Shown in pieces: positions 2,671 through 63,495 of a DNA stretch of 64,000 nucleotides; position 1 is the stretch's first letter; each line of letters opens with the position of its first letter. The notes below the pieces were generated by a model. The model saw only the letters and a program-made list of their open reading frames with translations. It made no database searches and was not told where the DNA came from. Position numbers and translations under genes: made by a program. This stretch comes from Escherichia phage vB_EcoM-RPN226, in sequence record OL770073.2. One strand, written 5' to 3'.

Positions 2671-2857
2671 CATTAACGATGAATTCATAGCAAATATTGA
2701 TTACACCGAAGAAGATTCTAGATATGTTGGAATAATTTATATCACATCAAAAGCAGCGCAAGGTGTTGTTTGCATGGCTGAATTTGATGAATACTTTTTA
2801 GATTATGATGATATGATAGAATGGTCTAAAAGATACATTAAAAGGAATCTTTTGTGA
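2594..2857 (+). CDS. hypothetical protein (start probably internal ATG at 2642)
   Basis: ORF ending at HNH gene start; N-terminus (VKFSTFDINDEF) mirrors N-terminus of downstream HNH ORF. Confidence 0.3.
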   Translation: MTHLNHYKIWLYLVLRMHTVKFSTFDINDEFIANIDYTEEDSRYVGIIYITSKAAQGVVCMAEFDEYFLDYDDMIEWSKRYIKRNLL

Positions 2858-3708
2858 AGAATTTTAAACTTGACATTAATGATGAATTTTTAATAAAGGA
2901 ATTAGTTGAAAAATTAGCGTTGAGTGAAGAAGACGCCAAGTCTTACATTAATTTTATTTCTGCGAATTCAACTGTTAAAACTCCAGGTAAAACGGAAGCA
3001 CACCACGTGCTTCCTAAATCAATATTTCCTGAATATTTAAAATCTACATGGAATTTAGTTAATTTAAGTCATTTTAATCATTTTAAAGCACACTTCTTAT
3101 TAGCAAAAGGTAAAAATGGAAAAATGTTAAATGCTTTAAATAGAATGATGTCAGGAAAAACATATAAAAATTTATCTTTAGCCGAAGTTGATTTAATAGC
3201 TGCTGAATATAGTTTTATAAAACAAGATGTAAGTGACACAATATCAAAAAGGCTTCAACAGTATTATTCAAATCCGCAAAATAGAAATGCTGCTAGAGAA
3301 AGGGCATTAAAATATTTTTCAGTAGCAAAAAATAGGAAAGATAATAAAGAAAGATTAAATAATTTTAAAACAAAACAAAAAATTTCAATGGCTTCAAGGG
3401 AATGGTTTAATAACGAAGAAAATAAAATTAAACACCAAAAGGCTGTTCGTGCTGCTTTATCAAAACCTGAATATAAAATAGCTATATCAAATTCAGTAGC
3501 TGCTAGTTGGAAAAATCCGGAGATTAGAAAAGCTCATATAGCATCTCGACGAAAAGGCTATCATTGGGATAATAAAGATAAATTGTATGAATTGTGGATA
3601 TCATATAATCGTCCTAAACATGTAATGTTTAGGAAAATGTTAGTTAAGAATGGATATCCAATAGAGGCTTCATTACAGGCTTTAGTTAAAGAATTTTCTT
3701 CATTGTGA
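2854..3708 (+). CDS. HNH homing endonuclease (Mob-like, free-standing)
   Basis: GTG start after AAAGGA; HNH motif EAHHVLPKS...NLVNLSHFNHFKAH; C-terminal region paralogous to ORF 21476..22126 (YELWxxxNRPK...GYP). Confidence 0.7.
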   Translation: MKNFKLDINDEFLIKELVEKLALSEEDAKSYINFISANSTVKTPGKTEAHHVLPKSIFPEYLKSTWNLVNLSHFNHFKAHFLLAKGKNGKMLNALNRMMSGKTYKNLSLAEVDLIAAEYSFIKQDVSDTISKRLQQYYSNPQNRNAARERALKYFSVAKNRKDNKERLNNFKTKQKISMASREWFNNEENKIKHQKAVRAALSKPEYKIAISNSVAASWKNPEIRKAHIASRRKGYHWDNKDKLYELWISYNRPKHVMFRKMLVKNGYPIEASLQALVKEFSSL

Positions 3709-12710: not shown

Positions 12711-13451
12711 ATGATTAACGATTATATGACAGTTGAAGAAATCCGTCTTGATTTGGGTCTTGCATTAAAGGAAAAAGATTTCGTAATTGATAAAACCGGG
12801 GTTAAAACTATTGAAATTATTGGTGCATCATTTGTAGCAGATGAACCTTTTATTTTTGGCGCTCTTAATGATGAATACATTCAACGTGAACTTGAATGGT
12901 ATAAGTCTCAAAGTTTGTTTGTTAAAGATATTCCAGGTGAAACACCAAAGATTTGGCAGCAGGTAGCATCTTCTAAAGGCGAAATTAACTCGAATTATGG
13001 TTGGGCCATCTGGTCAGAAGATAACTATGCCCAGTATGATATGTGTTTAGCTGAACTTGGTCAAAATCCTGATTCTCGACGTGGTATCATGATTTATACT
13101 CGTCCATCCATGCAGTTTGACTACAATAAAGATGGCATGTCAGATTTCATGTGTACTAATACAGTACAGTACCTGATTCGTGATAAGAAAATTAATGCAG
13201 TGGTTAATATGAGAAGCAATGACTGCTGGGCAGGCTATCGTAATGATTATGCGTGGCAAAAATACGTACTAGATAAATTAGTATCTGATTTGAATGCAGG
13301 CGACCCATCACGACAGTATAAAGCAGGTTCTATTATATGGAATGTTGGAAGTCTTCATGTGTACGAAAATCAGTTTTATTTGGTTGACCATTGGTGGAAC
13401 ACCGGTGAAACCCATATTGCTAAAAAGGATTATACTGGAAAATGGAAGTAA
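12711..13451 (+). CDS. 42: dCMP hydroxymethylase gp42
   Basis: 246 aa, thymidylate-synthase-like fold; matches T4 gp42. Confidence 0.95.
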   Translation: MINDYMTVEEIRLDLGLALKEKDFVIDKTGVKTIEIIGASFVADEPFIFGALNDEYIQRELEWYKSQSLFVKDIPGETPKIWQQVASSKGEINSNYGWAIWSEDNYAQYDMCLAELGQNPDSRRGIMIYTRPSMQFDYNKDGMSDFMCTNTVQYLIRDKKINAVVNMRSNDCWAGYRNDYAWQKYVLDKLVSDLNAGDPSRQYKAGSIIWNVGSLHVYENQFYLVDHWWNTGETHIAKKDYTGKWK

Positions 13452-14083
13452 ATGCGCCACATGTTTATAAGTATAAACATCCTAAAACTAAAAAGTGGTA
13501 TATAGGAAGTCATGATGGTCACAACCCGAATTATGATGGTTCGGGTGTAGTTTGGCAACATGCTAAAAAGAAATATGGAATAAAATCCTTTAATAAAGAA
13601 ATATTATATGAAGGACCAATGTTTAGACAGGTTGAAGAAATTATTTTAACTTGTTTAGATGCTGCTAATTGTCCAGATTCATATAATTTAAAGAATGAAG
13701 CATGGGGAGGAAGTTTTCCAGGCAAATTAAATGGAATGTACGGTAAAAAACTATCTCCAGAAGAAAGATATAAGTGCGGAAATGCCTTTCGTGGAATCAA
13801 GCGTCCTGATCATTCTAAAAGAATGAAAGGCGAAGGTAATCCAATGTATGGTAAAAATGAGCAGGCATATGGAATTATAAATCGAGCAAAGGAAAATTCT
13901 GGTAAAACTTATGAAGAAATTTTTGGCGCAGAAAAAGCTAAAATAATTAAAGAAACGATGTCTAAAAATCGTAAAGGAAAACCTCATAATTTGATAGAAA
14001 AAATATGTCCGCATTGCGGACTAAAAGGACGTGGGCCAAATATGACAAGATACCATTTTGACAAATGTAAGGCACTTAAATGA
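13442..14083 (+). CDS. GIY-YIG homing endonuclease (Seg-like, free-standing)
   Basis: N-terminal VYKYKH...KKWYIGSH (GIY-YIG), basic NUMOD-like repeats, C-terminal CPHCG zinc motif; start overlaps 3' end of gene 42. Confidence 0.6.
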   Translation: MEVNAPHVYKYKHPKTKKWYIGSHDGHNPNYDGSGVVWQHAKKKYGIKSFNKEILYEGPMFRQVEEIILTCLDAANCPDSYNLKNEAWGGSFPGKLNGMYGKKLSPEERYKCGNAFRGIKRPDHSKRMKGEGNPMYGKNEQAYGIINRAKENSGKTYEEIFGAEKAKIIKETMSKNRKGKPHNLIEKICPHCGLKGRGPNMTRYHFDKCKALK

Positions 14084-14999: not shown

Positions 15000-15929
15000 A
15001 TGTCTATTGCAGATTTAAAATCCCGTTTGATTAAAGCTTCCACTTCTAAAATGACTGCTGAACTGACTACATCTAAATTCTTTAATGAAAAGGATGTAAT
15101 CCGTACAAAAATCCCAATGCTCAATATCGCTATTTCCGGCGCGATTGATGGTGGTATGCAGTCTGGTTTAACTATTTTTGCAGGTCCTTCTAAACACTTT
15201 AAATCAAATATGTCTTTGACTATGGTTGCGGCGTATTTGAACAAATATCCTGACGCGGTTTGTCTATTTTATGATAGCGAATTTGGTATTACTCCAGCTT
15301 ATTTGCGATCCATGGGAGTTGACCCGGAACGAGTAATTCATACGCCAATTCAGTCAGTTGAACAGCTGAAAATTGATATGGTGAATCAGCTTGAAGCTAT
15401 TGAGCGCGGTGAAAAAGTTATTGTATTCATCGACTCAATCGGTAATATGGCTTCTAAGAAAGAAACGGAAGATGCCTTGAATGAAAAATCTGTGGCAGAT
15501 ATGACTCGTGCTAAATCACTGAAGTCATTATTCCGTATTGTTACTCCTTATTTTAGTATTAAAAACATTCCATGTGTTGCGGTTAACCATACAATTGAAA
15601 CAATTGAAATGTTTAGTAAAACCGTGATGACAGGTGGTTGTGTTATTGCTGGTACTAAAATCCAGATGTCCGATGGTTCTACTAAAGCAGTTGAAGATAT
15701 TCGCCCGGGTGAACGTGTTAAAACCATGGTCGGTGATAATGAAGTAACTTATGTTTGGGACCCCGAAACTCTGGCTGAAGGTACTCCTGAATGTTTCGAA
15801 ATTGAATTCGAAGACGGTTATAAAGTAACTACTTCTAATACTCATAAATTTCTGGTAATGGTTAAAGACATTCCAACGTGGGTTGAAGCTAAAGACTTAG
15901 TAGCCGGTATGGATTGTGTTGTAAGGTAA
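15000..15929 (+). CDS. uvsX: UvsX recombinase N-terminal part (213 aa) fused to N-terminal half of a split intein (96 aa)
   Basis: residues 1-213 colinear with T4 UvsX up to KTVMTGG; then CVIAGTKIQMSDGS (Hint block A, Cys1) and TTSNTHKF (block B); stop at 15927. Confidence 0.85.
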   Translation: MSIADLKSRLIKASTSKMTAELTTSKFFNEKDVIRTKIPMLNIAISGAIDGGMQSGLTIFAGPSKHFKSNMSLTMVAAYLNKYPDAVCLFYDSEFGITPAYLRSMGVDPERVIHTPIQSVEQLKIDMVNQLEAIERGEKVIVFIDSIGNMASKKETEDALNEKSVADMTRAKSLKSLFRIVTPYFSIKNIPCVAVNHTIETIEMFSKTVMTGGCVIAGTKIQMSDGSTKAVEDIRPGERVKTMVGDNEVTYVWDPETLAEGTPECFEIEFEDGYKVTTSNTHKFLVMVKDIPTWVEAKDLVAGMDCVVR

Positions 15930-16829
15930 ATAAATATGGATACCGGACTAATGTATATTTTGAGGTATCCATATGAATTTTGTCTACAAAATCGTGTTCA
16001 ACAATAGAATTAAAGAAAACACTCCACCGTTTTACTACATAGGAAGCAAAACGAACGCTTCCTATGTAGATGGTAAGATTATAGATTCCAATGGTCATGA
16101 GTACTATGGTTCATCGAGATATCCCGGATATTATGATTTTATCGATAATGTTACGGTGGAAATACTTGAACAATTCGATGAGATAGAACACGCCGAACTA
16201 TTAGAGCGTGAAAATTTTTATCAGAAACAAGTAAAAGTTAAAACAAATCCAGATTATTTTAATTTGGATTATGCATGCGGACATAATTCATATGCTAATT
16301 CTGATTTTGCGTCGTACAAGCATCATATAACAGGCAAATGTATTCGTCTTGAAAGAAACCATCCTCTTGTTAAATCGGGAGAATATGTTGGCGTCACAAA
16401 AGGCGCGAAATGTTCTGATGCTCATCGTAAGCTCATATCAGAAGCTATTACTGGAGAAAACAACGGTTTCTATGGTAAGAAACATTCTAAAGAAACCCTC
16501 GATATAATAGCAGAAAAGGCAAAGAAAAGATTAAAGCATTCCCATCCTAGACAAAAAGGTGTTATTATAAACGGTATTGAATATCGTGGTGTCCGTCCTG
16601 CTGCAAGAGAACTAGGAATTAATCCTAATACAATTATCCGCAAGATTAAAACTAACACTAAAGGCTGGGCTTATGCGGCACAGTGATATTATTAAACTAG
16701 CTACTACGAAACACAAGGTAAAGTATGAAAATTAAATCTGTTAAATCTGTTGGTAAAAAAGAAGTCTATGATTTGTCTGTTGCTGACGTAGAGCATTATG
16801 TTTTAGAAAATGGTATCGTTACACACAAC
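15639..16829 (+). mobile_element. split intein plus embedded free-standing homing endonuclease gene interrupting uvsX
   Basis: N-intein 15639..15926, HEG 15973..16686, C-intein 16725..16829; exteins rejoin to a 393-aa UvsX. Confidence 0.75.
15973..16686 (+). CDS. GIY-YIG homing endonuclease (free-standing, between the two uvsX pieces)
   Basis: own RBS (TGAGGTA) and ATG, different frame from uvsX; FVYKIVF...PFYYIGSK GIY-YIG motif; NUMOD-like FYGKKHSKETL; C-terminal HTH-like GINPNTIIRKIK. Confidence 0.65.
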   Translation: MNFVYKIVFNNRIKENTPPFYYIGSKTNASYVDGKIIDSNGHEYYGSSRYPGYYDFIDNVTVEILEQFDEIEHAELLERENFYQKQVKVKTNPDYFNLDYACGHNSYANSDFASYKHHITGKCIRLERNHPLVKSGEYVGVTKGAKCSDAHRKLISEAITGENNGFYGKKHSKETLDIIAEKAKKRLKHSHPRQKGVIINGIEYRGVRPAARELGINPNTIIRKIKTNTKGWAYAAQ

Positions 16830-17372
16830 ACAGGCGTAATGTATTCGGCTGATACCGTATTCATTATCGGTAAACGTCAGATTAAAGATGGTTCTGATCT
16901 TCAGGGGTATCAATTTGTTCTAAATGTAGAAAAATCTCGTACCGTTAAAGAAAAAAGTAAATTCTTTATTGATGTTAAATTTGACGGTGGTATCGATCCT
17001 TATTCTGGATTGTTAGATATGGCTCTTGAATTAGGATTTGTAGTAAAACCTAAAAATGGTTGGTATGCTCGTGAATTTCTTGACGAAGAAACCGGTGAGA
17101 TGATTCGCGAAGAAAAATCTTGGCGTGCAAAAGATACCAACTGCACTACATTCTGGGGTCCTTTATTTAAACATCAACCATTCCGAGATGCTATTAAACG
17201 TGCTTATCAGTTAGGTGCTATTGATAGTAATGAAATTGTTGAAGCTGAAGTTGATGAATTGATTAACTCAAAGGTTGAAAAATTTAAATCTCCAGAAAGT
17301 AAAAGTAAATCAGCAGCTGATTTAGAAACTGACCTAGATCAGTTAAGTGATATGGAAGAATTTAATGAATAA
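16725..17372 (+). CDS. uvsX: C-terminal half of split intein (35 aa) fused to UvsX C-terminal part (180 aa)
   Basis: MKIKSVKSVGKKEVYDLSVADVEHYVLENGIVTHN (blocks F/G ending His-Asn) then Thr+1 and TGVMYSADTVFIIGKRQ... colinear with T4 UvsX C-terminus; own RBS. Confidence 0.85.
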   Translation: MKIKSVKSVGKKEVYDLSVADVEHYVLENGIVTHNTGVMYSADTVFIIGKRQIKDGSDLQGYQFVLNVEKSRTVKEKSKFFIDVKFDGGIDPYSGLLDMALELGFVVKPKNGWYAREFLDEETGEMIREEKSWRAKDTNCTTFWGPLFKHQPFRDAIKRAYQLGAIDSNEIVEAEVDELINSKVEKFKSPESKSKSAADLETDLDQLSDMEEFNE

Positions 17373-46503: not shown

Positions 46504-47160
46504 TTATTTAGCCCTTCCTAATATTCTGGCCGCCTGAGAACATATTGATTCAAGGCGGTCATTACTTATATGATCATTTCTATACCAGTACATGGTTATT
46601 GTTCCAGCATAGATATTATCCAAATTAAAATATGGACAACTGTACATGTAATTTATTTCGGGAGTAGGCTTTTTAGTTGGTAAAAAAGCAAATTTTGAAT
46701 CGGAATAATAATGACGTCCATTTAAATGAACTGTATATTCATCCATAGTTTTATCAACAGGATATCCTCCAAGTGATTTTTCGCTTATTGTTGAAGGTAA
46801 TTTTCCTTCATATGCTATAATATCAACAAAATAGTTTAAGTTTTTAGGGCGGAAAGAATACACCGCACTAAAGTCTGCCTCAGATGATATGTGAACTATC
46901 TGGAGTTGTTCCAGGGCGACAGATTCAAAGCGTGCAGTTCTTTCCTTTTCAATAATTTCACTGTATGTTTCATACTTTGATTGCTTATAGTACTCAAAGA
47001 AACTATCTCCCCTATACCAAACAATCGCCATTATAAACAAAAGAATTACGACAGCTACTCGGGAAGCAAGAACCTTCCCGGTAGCGTTATCTTTGAACAA
47101 GCGATCTAGAACACCCAACAGAATATCAGAGGGCGAAAATGATATTCTAGGTGCTGCCAT
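46504..47160 (-). CDS. t: holin T
   Basis: 218 aa as in T4 holin; single N-terminal TMD (VAVVILLFIMAIVWY) and large periplasmic domain; RBS AAGGAGGG. Confidence 0.85.
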   Translation of the reverse strand: MAAPRISFSPSDILLGVLDRLFKDNATGKVLASRVAVVILLFIMAIVWYRGDSFFEYYKQSKYETYSEIIEKERTARFESVALEQLQIVHISSEADFSAVYSFRPKNLNYFVDIIAYEGKLPSTISEKSLGGYPVDKTMDEYTVHLNGRHYYSDSKFAFLPTKKPTPEINYMYSCPYFNLDNIYAGTITMYWYRNDHISNDRLESICSQAARILGRAK

Positions 47161-47190: not shown

Positions 47191-47970
47191 TTATACTCTT
47201 GGACCATATATTGCTCCAACATTTATCCACGTTGGAGCAGACCCTATAACAGCATAACCAGCAGCACCGCCGTCATATTCTGTACCGTTACCTTGAATAT
47301 TACATCTTCCTCCAGCAGCACCAACGTTACCGCCAGCACCGCCTGTATATACCCAAAGAGACCCCTCACCGACAGATCCGGCACCAGGAGCGGAAATGGT
47401 GCCGGCGGTTGCACCAGCACCCATATGAGAGCCAGACCCGCCAGCACCGAATGGGCGACCACCGCCACCGCCAAATGATAGTCTGCCATATCTACCGCCG
47501 CCACCGCCACCGCCGCCACCAGCAATAGCTCCGCCATTATTAATTCTTAGTCTCCCACCAATATCGTTTTGAATACAATGACCTCCAGCTGATCCAGGAC
47601 TATTGCTACCGCCATTCCCGCCACGGCCATACATCGTTACACCGTGTATATTCAGTTGAACATATTCATTTGGTGTATCTCCGTACATGAAGAATAAAGG
47701 AACATCTTTAGAATATGATACTAAATCTCCGGTGATATTAAACACTATAGGTGCACTACCTGCCTCAAAACATCTATCTCGGAACCATTGACCATTGAAG
47801 TTATGGTCTGCTCCAAGCGTGTGAATTATTTCTCTTGAGCGACCTGCAAATTGACTCATCCAGCAAGGAACACCCAATCTTAATTGACCAGCTGCTTGAC
47901 TCATCCAGCGCTGACCCGTTTCATTTACGGCTGAACTTCCAATCCAGCCAGGAACTCCAACTACTGCCAT
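47191..47970 (-). CDS. 38: long tail fiber tip adhesin gp38 (T2-type, glycine-rich motifs)
   Basis: 259 aa; conserved N-terminus, then glycine-rich motifs ([38 protein letters not shown]) separated by variable segments. Confidence 0.85.
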
Positions 47971-48006
47971 AATTTATACTCCAAAGGGGGCATTTCCCCC
48001 TTGTTG

Positions 48007-51000
48007 TTAGAATTTAAAGTATTTACCAATTTTGCGAGCAATTTTAGTGAAGAAAGGCGTTTTCAATTCTTTAATTTCTTCACTCATTTCCTGAATGGCC
48101 TTAATTAAAAGAGCATTCACAGCAGAGTTAGAAATTGTCAGAACTTCGTCTGGTTTATCAAGATTGCCAATTTTCGAAATATTAATCGCTTCTGGTAATA
48201 TTTCTTGTAAATCCTGTGCGATAATGCCGATCTCATGACCGATAATTTCACGGTCGGATAATGATTTAACTTTATCGTAGGTTTTAACTTTCAGTTTACC
48301 GATTAAATCAGTTGCATTTCCTATATAATCTTCGATGTTTTCTTTGAGGCGACGGTCTGATCGAATATAAACATCGTTAAAGCTTCCGTTACCAGTGGCA
48401 TGAAATTCTCCACTTGCATGGAATTGATAATTAGCATCTTGAACATGGAGAATCGCTGCTGCAGTATTATTACTATCACCTGGCATATGAACATCCAAAG
48501 CAGCGATGTAGTTACGCCCCCAATCAACCGCTTTCCAAATGGCATGAGCACTATCAACGCTTTGTTGACAGTCAAGCAACAAACCAGCAGGGCGATTTCT
48601 CCAATCCACATAAGCACCGCCAGAAACCTCACCACGAATAATTCCTTGATCTGCGGCATAAGGAACACGTCCGTCAAGTTTAAACATCGCGCCCTGGAAG
48701 CGATGTGCAACTGCTCCACCATAGTTATTGCGAATATGTAAAATACCCTCATCTGTAGCCCAGATAACAGCCTTTTCCGATTCGCTGTCATCTCTAAACC
48801 AGATATGGCGTGCACCAGCAGAGTTTTTGATGGTTATTCCGTTAGGTCCATGCACGGTCAAAGCACCAGCAACATCAAACGCCAAATTGTTATCTGTCCT
48901 GCGTTCTGTAAAGAAGTGATAACCTTTGGAATCACCGACTTCCATCACTGCCGCGCGACCAACTTCTGAATTTCCCCAATTATTGATATGGAATCGTTCA
49001 GAGCTATTATTCATCTGATTTAGGTATAATGTACCATCAGTAAATGTTTCGCCAAAGAAACGAGTTTTAATTGCACCTGTCGCTAAAGTACGTTCAGTGG
49101 AAAAATGAGCGCCTTGACTATCTTCTAACTGGATGATGTTATCACGAGCATTATTACTATCACCCCAATGGTTAAATTTAAAATAATCTCGTGATCCTAA
49201 ACGTCCGGCGTCAAAAGTCATCACGCCTTTCATGTTAATATCACCGTCGACCAGAACATTATCCGGGAAGTTAACAGTACCGTCTTGATTAAAACGAGAC
49301 GTATGGCCTTGTGAACCATCTTCTTTCAGATGATGAATAACGAATGTACCCGAATTAATTTCAGTACCTAAAGACCAAACGGCTTTACTGTTTAAAAACT
49401 TCTGTTTAACAATAGGATAATATTTGCTTATAGCATCATCATCAATTTCCTGGAAAATAGGAGCTGCTTGAACATACTGAATATCATAACCACCGGCGCC
49501 CGCACCGTGACCAGTAAATTTAATATAGCCGTTTGCTGCGAACGTATTGTAACTTGATTGTAAATCCGGAATAGTAACTTTACCAGTATCTAAAGCCATA
49601 CTAAACGGGCGAAGTGGACCGATATCGCCATATTTACCTTCACCGTAAGCAGTTGGAATAATATGAAGACTTCCTTCTGAACGTCTAAAAATGGCTCCAT
49701 AATCTGCATTCCAAATGCGAAGCGCATTCACTGCTCCAGATGAAATTTCGCCTGTTGTGTGAACTCCTCTATTTCCAGCAGTAACACCGGATGATTCAAA
49801 TGAACCATTGACGTTCATTTCTACTTCACCGGTAGTAAGTCTTTGAATATAACTCATCCAGCTAGTTGCGTCAGAAATTTCCATGACATTTTTACGATTA
49901 CCTACACTAGGATTAGTAAACGTATTACCCCATACAGAAATTGTCATATTATCAACTGAACTGCTACCAGTTGTGTTACCTCTAAACATCAGCGTAGAAG
50001 CATTATTACGACCATCAATATTAACAGAACCACCAATAACGTCAATATTACCAGGAGTAACTAACAAACCGCCATGAGTATTAATGTTTGTGGTACCCTT
50101 ACCGCGGAAATAGTGGTGATAATTGCCGCCCTGATAATAACCTAAAAGAGTTTGACCGTCGCCATACGCGTTATTATCATGATAAGTAACAACAGTGGCT
50201 AATGCATAGTTTTCTGTCGGTGGCGTTGTCATAAGAATCCCATCCGGAGAATAACCCATAACCATTTTTCTAAGGCTTTGTGTTTCCGCAGGACCGTAAA
50301 TGAAAGTTCTTGTTCCGTTGTTTACTGTATGAAAATATCCGTCCTGATGCCATTTAAATCCGGTATCATTATCACCAAGAGCAATTGAAGCAGTCCCTAA
50401 TTCAGAATATCCTTTAGAGCCGCCCGGAAGACCTATAGAAATAGAATGGCCTGCTTTCAATCCACCGAACCAGGTAAACGACCAAAGATAGGCATCTAAC
50501 CCGTCACCGGCGTACCAGGTTATCCCGTCGTTATCTTTAACTTCATGGAATATACCAGATCCTACGGCATTTCGCATAACACGGAGGTGGTTAATAGCCG
50601 TTTCGCTTTCTGCCAACGGAGTGTTATTTGCTAATGAGTAGATATCATAATCGCCTGTCTTCTTCCCATTTGTAATAACTTTATCGGTCAGAATTTGTGG
50701 AGACGAAATAGATTTCCATGCTGATACTTCAGGTGAAGTAAATAGGCCACTGCCTGAAAATGCATAGGTGCTTTCATCACCAGCGGCGTAGTCTTGAACG
50801 CGGATATTAACTACTTGCGTAGTTAATCCATCATTAGCCGGGGCATAAATGATTCCACGTTCGCGGCTATTGCCATCGAAAAAACGAACATGCGATGTAC
50901 CTGAACTTTTTGTAATAAGTTCTCCACCCTCAGTCATAATCTGCCCGGCGGCAATAATATCGCGAGTTACTCGAGCAATACCAGTTAAATTGAAATCACC

Positions 51001-51249
51001 GGTTTGAGTGAAGGTACCATTTAAAGTATAATCACCAGTTTGATTATAGTTTCCTATATGAATAACATTCCCGTCAATGCTACCACCTTTAGCAAAACCA
51101 AGATCAATGATATTTCCTTGGTCATCTTTAGTAAAAAGTACGCGGTCTTTTAAGTTTATAGCCAATTCACCTTCGGCTAATACTGAAGCGGCAGGACGTG
51201 CTCCTGCAGTTTTGCTTCTTTTAAATTGTATTTGTTTTAAAGTAGCCAT
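48007..51249 (-). CDS. 37: long tail fiber distal subunit gp37
   Basis: 1080 aa; conserved N-terminus MATLKQIQFKRSKTAGARPAASVLAEGELAINL...; C-terminal ~120 aa resembles autoproteolytic intramolecular chaperone domain. Confidence 0.9.
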   Translation of the reverse strand: MATLKQIQFKRSKTAGARPAASVLAEGELAINLKDRVLFTKDDQGNIIDLGFAKGGSIDGNVIHIGNYNQTGDYTLNGTFTQTGDFNLTGIARVTRDIIAAGQIMTEGGELITKSSGTSHVRFFDGNSRERGIIYAPANDGLTTQVVNIRVQDYAAGDESTYAFSGSGLFTSPEVSAWKSISSPQILTDKVITNGKKTGDYDIYSLANNTPLAESETAINHLRVMRNAVGSGIFHEVKDNDGITWYAGDGLDAYLWSFTWFGGLKAGHSISIGLPGGSKGYSELGTASIALGDNDTGFKWHQDGYFHTVNNGTRTFIYGPAETQSLRKMVMGYSPDGILMTTPPTENYALATVVTYHDNNAYGDGQTLLGYYQGGNYHHYFRGKGTTNINTHGGLLVTPGNIDVIGGSVNIDGRNNASTLMFRGNTTGSSSVDNMTISVWGNTFTNPSVGNRKNVMEISDATSWMSYIQRLTTGEVEMNVNGSFESSGVTAGNRGVHTTGEISSGAVNALRIWNADYGAIFRRSEGSLHIIPTAYGEGKYGDIGPLRPFSMALDTGKVTIPDLQSSYNTFAANGYIKFTGHGAGAGGYDIQYVQAAPIFQEIDDDAISKYYPIVKQKFLNSKAVWSLGTEINSGTFVIHHLKEDGSQGHTSRFNQDGTVNFPDNVLVDGDINMKGVMTFDAGRLGSRDYFKFNHWGDSNNARDNIIQLEDSQGAHFSTERTLATGAIKTRFFGETFTDGTLYLNQMNNSSERFHINNWGNSEVGRAAVMEVGDSKGYHFFTERRTDNNLAFDVAGALTVHGPNGITIKNSAGARHIWFRDDSESEKAVIWATDEGILHIRNNYGGAVAHRFQGAMFKLDGRVPYAADQGIIRGEVSGGAYVDWRNRPAGLLLDCQQSVDSAHAIWKAVDWGRNYIAALDVHMPGDSNNTAAAILHVQDANYQFHASGEFHATGNGSFNDVYIRSDRRLKENIEDYIGNATDLIGKLKVKTYDKVKSLSDREIIGHEIGIIAQDLQEILPEAINISKIGNLDKPDEVLTISNSAVNALLIKAIQEMSEEIKELKTPFFTKIARKIGKYFKF

Positions 51250-51937: not shown

Positions 51938-51945
51938 TATTTATA
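51938..51945 (-). promoter_or_regulatory. T4 late promoter TATAAATA for genes 36-37-38
   Basis: reverse complement of tatttata upstream of gene 36 start. Confidence 0.6.
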
Positions 51946-61095: not shown

Positions 61096-62479
<1,384 letters not shown>

Positions 62480-63495
62480 TAATTTAGGCCTAGGTATAAG
62501 GTGACTTATACTTGTAATCTATCTAAACGGGGGACCTCTCTAGTAGACAATCCCGTGCTAAATTGTAGGACTACCCTTTAATAAATACTTCTATATAAAA
62601 AGAGGTGTTTATGAAAAGCGGAATTTATCAGATTAAAAACACTTTAAACGGTAAAGTGTATGTTGGAAGTGCTAAAGATTTTGAGAAAAGATGGAAGAGA
62701 CATTTTAAAGACCTTGAAAACGGTGTTCACTCTTCTATAAAATTTCAAAGGTCTTTTAATAAACATGGTAATGTTTTTGAATGCTCTGTACTGGAAGAAA
62801 TTCCATATGAGAAAGATTTGATTATTGAACGAGAAAATTTTTGGATTAAAGAGCTAAATTCTAAAATTAATGGATATAATATTGCTGATGCGTCTTTTGG
62901 CGATGTGCTTTCAAATCATCCATTAAAAGAAGAAATTGCTAAGAAACGAGCTGAAACTGTTAAAGCTAAGATGCTTAAGCTTGGTCCTGATGGTCGGAAA
63001 GCTCTTTATGGTAAACACGGAAGTAAAAATGGCCGATGGAATCCAGAAAACCACAAGTTTTGTAAATGCGGTGTTCGCATACCATCTTCGGCTGATACTT
63101 GTGGAAAGTGCCGAAAACGTTCAGGTGAAAATAACCCGTTCTTTAATCACAAACATTCAGAAAAAACTAAAACTAAACTATCTGAAAAGATGAAAGGCAA
63201 AAAGCCAGCTAACATCAAAAAGATTTCATGCGATGGGATTATTTTTGAATGTGCAGCCGATGCGGCTAGACATTTTGAAATTTCATCAGGATTAGTTACT
63301 TACCGTGTAAAATCTGATAAGTGGAATTGGTTCTACATAAATGCCTAACGACTATCCCTTTGGGGAGTAGGGTCAAGTGACTCGAAACGATAGACATCTT
63401 GCTTCATCAAGATGGAGATATAGTCTGATCTGTATGGTGACATGCAGCTGGATATAATTCCGGGATAAGATTAACGACCTTATCTGAACATAATG
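62480..63495 (+). ncRNA. group I self-splicing intron in td (1016 nt)
   Basis: starts UAAUUUAGGCCUAGGUAUAAGGUGACUUAUACUUGUAAUCUAUCUAAACGGGG, ends with G before exon 2 CUUCCAUUC; same length and boundaries as the T4 td intron as I recall it; contains I-TevI ORF. Confidence 0.8.
62611..63348 (+). CDS. intron-encoded GIY-YIG homing endonuclease I-TevI
   Basis: 245 aa from MKSGIYQIKNTLNGKVYVGSAKDFEKRWKRH; zinc finger CKCG...CGKC; C-terminal HTH; RBS AAAGAGG. Confidence 0.9.
   Translation: MKSGIYQIKNTLNGKVYVGSAKDFEKRWKRHFKDLENGVHSSIKFQRSFNKHGNVFECSVLEEIPYEKDLIIERENFWIKELNSKINGYNIADASFGDVLSNHPLKEEIAKKRAETVKAKMLKLGPDGRKALYGKHGSKNGRWNPENHKFCKCGVRIPSSADTCGKCRKRSGENNPFFNHKHSEKTKTKLSEKMKGKKPANIKKISCDGIIFECAADAARHFEISSGLVTYRVKSDKWNWFYINA

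Follow-up and report, generated by a model that had tools for sequence, protein, structure and literature searches.

Adhesins of the gp38 family, of which T2 gp38 is the type eponym, have been described since 1987, and schemes for predicting their receptors have been published. Their published segment architecture comprises an N-terminal attachment domain, a beta-helix, glycine-rich motifs (GRMs) and hypervariable segments (HVSs) (PMC3157838, PMC6851490). The receptors differ among members: FadL/OmpF for T2, Tsx for T6 and RB3 (PMC3157838), and OmpC for S16 and PP01. The crystal structures of S16 gp38 (6F45) and PP01 gp38 (9V85) consist of a beta-helix and a polyglycine-II (PGII) sandwich (PMC6851490, PMC12892980); in the S16 protein, residues 151-GGGGGGGG-158 form PGII helix 3 of this sandwich, and three tryptophans insert into three pockets of gp37 (PMC6851490). 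The T4 protein of the same name and map position, an assembly chaperone, is unrelated to the adhesins in both sequence and function (PMC3157838, PMC6851490).

Several gp38-bearing phages have been typed as OmpA-dependent. Infection and adsorption of IME340 are lost on an ompA deletion strain, and both are restored by complementation (PMC6499177). EV240 was found to depend on OmpA by RB-TnSeq, and its gp38 from HVS2 onward, placed in phage CM8, changed the receptor from Tsx to OmpA (bioRxiv 10.64898/2026.04.02.716166). FL20 and FL12 carry OmpA-dependent "type 2" adhesins (Lutz et al. 2025, PMC12032242), a class tied to a narrower range of OmpA variants (Lutz et al., PMC12032242).

Here we describe gene 38 of Escherichia phage vB_EcoM-RPN226 (OL770073.2), analysed within a stretch of 64,000 nucleotides that we call the window. 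RPN226 has been named among pig-associated E. coli phage isolates (PMC12189532), and the literature found under its name consists of isolate listings, with no experiments on the phage. The gene is already catalogued: GenBank entry ULA51769.1, "tail fiber adhesin [Escherichia phage vB_EcoM-RPN226]", is the same sequence over 259/259 residues and is annotated with the same function. We read the locus as a Tequatrovirus gene 38 whose product is a monomeric adhesin that would cap the gp37 trimer, with OmpA as the predicted receptor and a glycine tract whose length is probably fixed by structure, and we give this reading a probability of roughly 0.8. It draws on what was observed for gp38: its family, its fold, its genomic context, the conserved tract and the mosaic structure.

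Compared with the described systems, RPN226 gp38 has its family, architecture and gene position in common with T2 gp38, but differs from it in attachment subtype, in all HVSs, in the length of the glycine run (seven residues in T2) and over a C-domain that is 49% identical. With T6 and RB3 it shares the attachment subtype, the GRMs including a nine-glycine run, HVS1 and a near-identical C-terminus, whereas its HVS2 is 5 aa shorter and its HVS3 4 aa longer than theirs. The S16 and PP01 proteins, which are 45-65% identical to it, have a long glycine helix at the same position (S16 151-158), although the loops differ and loop B of PP01 is 5 aa longer. Among the relatives compared, the closest is the gp38 of IME340, which has the same sequence as that of SP1, with 96.1% amino acid and 93.8% nucleotide identity and the same length, HVS1-3 and attachment domain. 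The gp38 proteins of EV240, FL20/kvi and FL12 are 87-93% identical and have the same HVS2 and HVS3 lengths; FL12 has a T2-type attachment domain, and FL20 and kvi, which belong to Krischvirus, have a different gene 38 3' end.

Identity of gene 38 and its neighbourhood

Gene 38 and the features around it are as follows.

47191..47970, minus strand: gene 38, encoding the gp38 receptor-recognizing tail-fibre adhesin (259 aa plus stop; ORF with Pfam, PHROG and PDB matches)
47979..47982, minus strand: ribosome-binding site GGAG of gene 38, read from the sequence, 8 nt upstream of the start
48007..51249, minus strand: gene 37, distal long-tail-fibre subunit of 1080 aa (PHROG 1699, E=0), whose trimer gp38 would cap
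48010..48360, minus strand: C-terminal intramolecular-chaperone domain of gp37, residues 964-1080 (Pfam Peptidase_S74, 1.7e-13, residues 964-1021)
46504..47160, minus strand: gene t, holin, which canonically follows gene 38 (Pfam Phage_holin_T, 1.6e-118)
51938..51945, minus strand: TATAAATA, late-promoter consensus just upstream of g36 (motif scan)

The gene has an ATG start codon and a TAA stop codon, the latter at 47191-47193. Its product matches two Pfam families over their whole profiles, namely GP38 (PF05268, 1.2e-68, 231.7 bits, residues 47-259, profile 1-218/218) and Gp38_N (PF21721, 1.1e-20, 73.8 bits, residues 1-42, profile 1-40/40), both above the curated cut-off of 25 bits that applies to each. 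It also matches PHROG 2056 ("tail fiber protein; host specificity") at 2.6e-108, and its best match in the "phages" collection, among whose hits the identical GenBank entry does not appear, is 96.1% identical. The NCBIfam search returned no match, and a search for contigs encoding exactly this product yielded none. The 20 kb around the gene are 94-96% identical to many Tequatrovirus genomes. On this evidence gp38 is a member of the T2/T6-class adhesin family, as a preliminary description of this DNA had proposed in calling it a tip adhesin, and the sequence and fold matches given below agree.

Some records of close homologues are named "distal long tail fiber assembly catalyst", which would suit a T4-type gp38, that is, a gp37 assembly chaperone absent from the virion, with receptor binding left to gp37. 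We consider this almost certainly wrong. In Pfam, gp38 matches the adhesin family over its full length, and both its sequence and its fold lead to gp38 crystallized on the gp37 tip. The gp37 of this phage ends in an intramolecular-chaperone domain and not in a T4-type receptor-binding tip; the "assembly catalyst" names are a carry-over from T4 annotation.

The gene order, g37 with a Peptidase_S74 C-terminus followed by g38 and t, is the same in SP1, JE01, T2, T6, M1 and Ox2. The chaperone domain of gp37 comes after an NDVYIRS|DRRLK junction, a motif kept in JE01, SP1, M1, Ox2 and T2, and it is presumed, on the analogy of related fibres, to be cleaved off so as to expose the tip bound by gp38. 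The late-promoter consensus before g36 likely drives a g36-g37-g38 late transcript, to judge from what is known of T4. Across the window this motif is not enriched (5 copies seen against about 10 expected), and weight is given only to two copies, those directly before g36 and g34, because of where they lie. A hairpin lying between g37 and g38 is hardly more stable than shuffled sequence (z = -1.9), and we therefore claim no function for it. Scans of the entire window for tRNAs and Rfam families found nothing.

GC content in the 64-kb window peaks in the C-terminal half of gene 38 (57%; window mean 35.3%, SD 3.8%), owing to the GGN and GCN codons there. Two ORFs overlap this GC-rich half in other frames (47244..47537, minus strand, and 47293..47478, plus strand); we judged both spurious as genes, because each falls within a gene that is itself strongly supported and in sequence where stop codons are scarce.

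Domain architecture and fold

We aligned gp38 to reference adhesins and to 122 other family members, and scored invariance in 41 homologues; K3 gp38 is not part of the reference set, record X04747 holding gene 37 only. The segments, all on the minus strand, are listed from the N-terminus.

47842..47970, minus strand: N-terminal attachment domain, residues 1-43, with W9, W22 and W37; T6 subtype (Gp38_N match)
47629..47841, minus strand: first part of the central beta-helix, residues 44-114 (AF2 strands 48-114, pLDDT >90; Foldseek match 9V85_C)
47608..47628, minus strand: GRM1, GRGGNGG, residues 115-121 (G115, R116, G117, G118 and G120 invariant)
47587..47607, minus strand: HVS1, SNSPGSA, residues 122-128 (alignment, low column conservation; same in T6, RB3 and M1)
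47521..47586, minus strand: conserved beta-helix turn, residues 129-150 (I133, N135, I137, G138, R140-I143, N145, G147 and I149 invariant)
47494..47520, minus strand: GRM2, the nine-glycine run, residues 151-159 (counterpart of S16 gp38 PGII helix 3)
47473..47493, minus strand: HVS2, RYGRLSF, residues 160-166 (alignment; shorter than in T6/RB3)
47437..47472, minus strand: GRM3, residues 167-178 (G167-G171, R172, P173, G175 and G178 invariant)
47344..47436, minus strand: HVS3, residues 179-209, containing GEGSLWVY (alignment; longer than in T6/RB3)
47308..47343, minus strand: GRM4, residues 210-221, FL20-type variant (alignment; left recombination junction at its 5' edge)
47272..47307, minus strand: HVS4, residues 222-233 (alignment)
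47257..47271, minus strand: GRM5, GGAAG, residues 234-238 (alignment and conservation)
47194..47256, minus strand: conserved C-terminal strands closing the beta-helix, residues 239-259 (conservation and AF2 model)

GRM1-5 thus separate HVS1-4 in a fixed order, with little or no variation at the motif glycines and variable columns in between. Of the three tryptophans, all of which align with those of S16 gp38, W9 and W22 do not vary among the 41 homologues. Within the variable segments, R160 of HVS2 is absent from every relative compared, which have N or I there, and columns 202-205 of HVS3 are gaps in about 66% of homologues. The tip of HVS3 reads SLWVY, its W206-V207 being common to gp38 and IME340/SP1, in contrast to SLSAY in EV240, FL20/kvi and FL12.

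A phmmer search of the PDB matched 9V85 (the PP01 receptor-binding domain) at 7e-77 and 6F45_D (S16 gp38 on gp37) at 2e-52. The AF2 model, computed with the 41 homologues, has a mean pLDDT of 85.9, with low confidence in the first 18 residues. In Foldseek it matches 9V85_C with a TM-score of 0.86 (normalized by target length) and an rmsd of 2.2 Å, and 6F45_D with an E-value of 1.5e-21, and no other fold in the PDB was found at E<1. The predicted fold of gp38 is accordingly that of the solved adhesins, a beta-helix with a polyglycine-II sandwich.

Alignment, Pfam and fold agree with the preliminary description in placing a conserved N-terminal attachment region before glycine-rich motifs that alternate with variable segments. 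Its label "T2-type" did not hold for the attachment domain, which is of the T6 subtype: over residues 1-115 the identity is 114/115 to RB3 and 105/116 to T6, as against 60/116 to T2.

Conservation of the nine-glycine run

Residues 151-159 are encoded by GGT GGC GGC GGT GGC GGT GGC GGC GGT (window positions 47494-47520), so that the run of nine glycines noted at the outset is present. A second run, GGGGG, stands at residues 167-171, with ten further GG pairs elsewhere in gp38. The glycine content is 36% over residues 116-259, as against 12% over residues 1-115. When the C-terminal domain was shuffled, a run of at least nine glycines arose in 1174 of 200,000 trials (about 0.6%); since the run is kept in homologues, it is not a product of chance.

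In a survey of 116 near-full-length representatives of homologue clusters, the longest glycine run was exactly nine in 53 and longer than nine in none, which makes nine both the mode and the maximum. The run columns of the family alignment hold no gaps, conservation being 90% or more at the first seven glycines and lower at the last two; shorter runs have therefore arisen by substitution at the C-terminal end and not by deletion. The run is nine glycines long in each of the 15 members listed for the 90%-identity cluster, and those of 257 aa differ elsewhere. Nine glycines are likewise found in all of eight related genes, whose GGT/GGC/GGA patterns differ synonymously. FL12 keeps nine despite a perfect (GGC)8, and five of the 31 synonymous codon differences between this gene 38 and that of SP1 fall within the run.

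These data bear on the suggestion that the GGC/GGT repeats are substrates for slippage, which would make the tract a contingency locus where changes in length alter host range or switch the adhesin on and off. Two features of the DNA speak for it: TRF reports weak, imperfect period-3 and period-9 tandem arrays at the tract (scores 32-42, 80-84% matches), and GRM2 and GRM3 share a 14-nt repeat, GGCGGTGGCGGTGG, whose copies are in frame with each other at a distance of 42 nt. The homologues argue strongly the other way, however, with no run beyond nine, ungapped columns, and relatives, FL12 included, that vary only at synonymous third bases. In T6 gp38, moreover, no viable phage was recovered when single GRMs or HVSs were deleted (PMC3157838), and a trinucleotide repeat leaves the reading frame unshifted, so that an on/off switch would not result. 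Slippage at this tract is thus very improbable. The run aligns as the counterpart of S16 PGII helix 3, and for this reason we take its length to be structurally fixed: by alignment and by analogy with S16, the nine-glycine tract appears to be a length-constrained structural element and not an unstable repeat.

Receptor class

Among the adhesins compared, the combination of a short HVS2 and a long HVS3 relative to T6/RB3 occurs only in the OmpA-typed set, and it is common to gp38, IME340/SP1, EV240, FL20/kvi and FL12. All four receptor-typed relatives that bear it (IME340, EV240, FL20 and FL12) depend on OmpA. Identity over the C-domain gives the same grouping, with 93.8% to IME340/SP1, 88.9% to EV240, 88.2% to FL12 and 87.5% to FL20, as against 78.5% to RB3, 77.2% to T6, 66% to M1, 48.7% to T2 and about 48% to Ox2. 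Over the whole protein, the values are 96.1% for IME340, 93.0% for EV240, 92.3% for FL20 and 87.3% for FL12; FL18 gp38 is 87% identical across 90% of the query. Alignment with T2, T6, Ox2 and the other references, K3 left out, therefore places the variable segments with a known adhesin class: the specificity domain clusters with the type 2 OmpA-binding subgroup and not with the Tsx, OmpF, OmpC or type 1 OmpA binders. Because gp38 shares both the signature and high identity with a set that uses OmpA throughout, E. coli OmpA is most likely its primary receptor, a prediction drawn from sequence comparison and from the behaviour of typed relatives.

Binding to Tsx in the manner of T6, or to both Tsx and OmpA as PST requires (PMC3157838), would also be a natural thought, because gp38 is 87.5% identical to RB3 and 83% to T6 (83-87% for T6-like Tsx binders overall) and agrees with the T6 group in its attachment domain, in HVS1 and over the greater part of HVS4, and because type 2 OmpA adhesins have been argued to stem recently from Tsx binders (PMC12032242). 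The resemblance, however, is not carried by the distal half: from HVS2 onward, where the two length differences lie, identity to RB3/T6 is only 71-73%, and every typed phage with that indel signature is OmpA-dependent (PMC6499177, PMC12032242, bioRxiv 10.64898/2026.04.02.716166). The EV240 exchange described above indicates further that the distal half is enough to convert a Tsx phage to OmpA (bioRxiv 10.64898/2026.04.02.716166). We therefore regard Tsx, alone or with OmpA, as unlikely, and retain OmpA as the predicted receptor.

This assignment carries a real caveat, since single loop substitutions can switch the receptor and gp38 has four loop residues, R160, G180, Q226 and I249, found in no receptor-typed relative. 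In RB68 the single change Q206L switched the receptor from OmpF to OmpW (bioRxiv 10.64898/2026.04.02.716166), and PST and T6 gp38 are three residues apart (PMC3157838). There is a small but appreciable chance that gp38 recognizes another set of OmpA loop variants than its typed relatives do, or has a second receptor (Tsx or LPS), given that it combines IME340-type HVS1-3 with FL20-type GRM4/HVS4 and these four residues.

Mosaicism and divergence

The ten substitutions that separate gp38 from IME340/SP1 are A73T, R160N, G180S, A212N, N215E, A218S, Q226H, D233N, A245T and I249Q, and about six of them lie within a patch that resembles FL20, with which gp38 has the GRM4/HVS4 variant in common.

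47221..47338, minus strand: mosaic patch, gene nt 633-750, codons 211-250 (SP1/FL20 informative sites)

At sites informative between SP1 and FL20, the FL20 state is found at 19 of 22 within the patch and the SP1/IME340 state at 62 of 66 outside it, and the block score was reached by none of 20,000 permutations (p<5e-5). The left junction maps to the interval of codons 207-211, where HVS3 passes into GRM4, and the right one to codons 250/251, in the conserved C-terminus. GRM-coding DNA and conserved flanks have been proposed as crossover sites (PMC3157838). The position of the junction at GRM4 thus supports recombination at glycine-rich motifs in gene 38, and the part of the preliminary description that saw the repeats as recombination substrates is borne out to that extent, whereas the part on slippage is not. 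The partner fibre protein, gp37, of SP1 is far more divergent than its gp38, with 67% identity over the last 251 aa.

The same description called gene 38 the host-range-determining hotspot of the window. The first half of the claim is sound, as gp38 is an established primary-receptor determinant; the implied divergence was overstated. In a comparison with JE01 only, a genome picked for its similarity in the gene 38 region, g38 is 93.5% identical (N-domain 97.7%, C-domain 90.1%) against 95.1% for the window overall, and g36 (83.6%), g37 (91.2%) and several indel regions or segments either diverge more or are missing. We therefore rejected the idea that divergence in the window is highest at gene 38.

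A split uvsX in the same window

Outside gene 38, the most interesting feature of the window is the arrangement of uvsX, which is broken into three ORFs by a split intein and a free-standing endonuclease gene. The first ORF (15000..15929) codes for the N-terminal, RecA-like part of UvsX as far as ...SKTVMTGG and then for an intein N-fragment of 96 aa that starts CVIAGTKI. The second (15973..16686) encodes a free-standing NUMOD3 endonuclease. In the third (16725..17372), an intein C-fragment of 35 aa comes first, up to ...VTHN, after which TGVMYSADT... continues UvsX. In JE01, UvsX is uninterrupted and reads ...SKTVMTGG|TGVMYSADT... at the exact insertion point. The insert is present in only 11 of 509 matching phage records, where it is annotated as three separate genes, and the one paper found to pair "split intein" with "UvsX" covers fractured gp41 genes, not uvsX.

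A model for gp38 and its significance

The location of gp38 at the fibre tip, the processing of gp37 and the binding of OmpA would all follow from receptor-typed relatives and solved homologues. By this analogy, each long tail fibre would have a gp38 monomer capping the gp37 trimer at its tip, where residues 1-43 would form a three-helix attachment domain whose W9, W22 and W37 plug three symmetry-related pockets of gp37. Residues 44-150 and 239-259 would make up the beta-helix, and two excursions from it would carry the glycine-rich motifs that pack into the polyglycine-II sandwich. The nine-glycine run would be the long central PGII helix of this sandwich, its length being set by structure, and the hypervariable segments between the motifs would be distal loops in contact with the outer-membrane protein. 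The "type 2" loop set, with short HVS2 and long HVS3, would direct the phage to E. coli OmpA as the primary receptor. Diversity would then come from point substitutions within the loops, together with homologous exchange at motif-coding DNA and its flanks, and not from changes in tract length.

As gp38 is the main determinant of the outer-membrane protein used by T2/T6-like phages, a receptor class read from its sequence helps in choosing or engineering therapeutic phages, which in the present case is a routine use of published knowledge. The junction at a glycine-rich motif in gene 38 is of the type that earlier work proposed for the shuffling of specificity segments. Should the exchanged GRM4/HVS4 and the unmatched loop residues indeed give gp38 a different set of OmpA variants or a second receptor, RPN226 would be a natural case of altered host range brought about by an exchange at such a motif.

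The uvsX region

Outside the adhesin locus, a split intein appears to break the recombinase gene uvsX in two, with a homing endonuclease gene standing free between the halves (15000-17372, plus strand). Three consecutive open reading frames (ORFs) make up this region:

15000..15929, plus strand: N-terminal part of UvsX (RecA domain), followed by the N-terminal fragment of a Hint domain (about 96 aa, starting 'CVIAGTKI...')
15973..16686, plus strand: free-standing NUMOD3 endonuclease, between the two uvsX halves
16725..17372, plus strand: C-terminal intein fragment (35 aa, ending 'VTHN'), then the C-terminal part of UvsX, 'TGVMYSADT...'

In JE01, the phage used as reference for the whole-window comparison, uvsX is by contrast uninterrupted, and ...TGG is followed directly by TGV... 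exactly at the window's insertion point. The insert is present in only 11 of the 509 matching phage records, all 11 of which have the uvsX region annotated as three separate genes, and our literature search found no published description of a uvsX split by an intein.

Other regions of the window

The arrangement at 61931-63348 (plus strand) looks like that of the classical td group I intron, although Rfam, at the gathering threshold, detected no intron family in the whole window. Two ORFs form this arrangement:

within 61931-63348, plus strand: thymidylate synthase ORF of 183 aa, covering only positions 1-175 of the 266-position profile
62605..63348, plus strand: I-TevI-like GIY-YIG endonuclease ORF, after the thymidylate synthase ORF

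Two further ORFs, neither of which has a Pfam match, occupy stretches absent from JE01 and are probably accessory or mobile genes:

2854-3708, plus strand: 284-aa ORF with a GTG start
13442-14083, plus strand: 213-aa ORF

The adhesin locus

Gene 38 (47191..47970, minus strand) codes for the adhesin gp38, which caps the distal tail-fibre subunit gp37. The DNA of its specificity domain (47201-47650) has the highest GC content of the whole window (57% vs. 35.3%, SD 3.8%), and this leaves other frames free of stop codons, yielding two spurious ORFs:

47244..47537, minus strand: spurious ORF
47293..47478, plus strand: spurious ORF

The 36-nt gap between genes 37 and 38 contains a GGGGG/CCCCC hairpin followed by UUU (47985-48001, minus strand), just upstream of the gene 38 ribosome-binding site. 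The folding of this hairpin is barely stronger than that of shuffled controls (z = -1.9).

In the Krischvirus phages kvi and FL20, gp38 is 92% identical to that of the window, a Tequatrovirus gp38; there its neighbouring genes are unrelated, and the final 30 nt of the gene have diverged. This is a cross-genus transfer of the adhesin gene, as already noted (PMC12032242; bioRxiv 10.64898/2026.04.02.716166).

Within the attachment domain of gp38, GCTGGATGAGTCAA forms an exact 14-nt direct repeat (47896-47909 and 47851-47864, minus strand; spacing 45 nt), coding for the pseudo-repeats RWMSQ and CWMSQ, which bear two of the three tryptophans that dock onto gp37. The attachment domains are 99-100% identical among the window, JE01 and the comparison phage SP1. 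On the gp37 side, residues from about 830 to 963 (48361-48760), directly before the junction with the chaperone domain, share 54% identity with SP1 and about 85% with JE01. Since distal gp37 has diverged while the gp38 N-domains are near-identical, the tip of gp37 and the N-domain of gp38 co-vary more loosely here than the description of 'lock-and-key subtypes' suggests.
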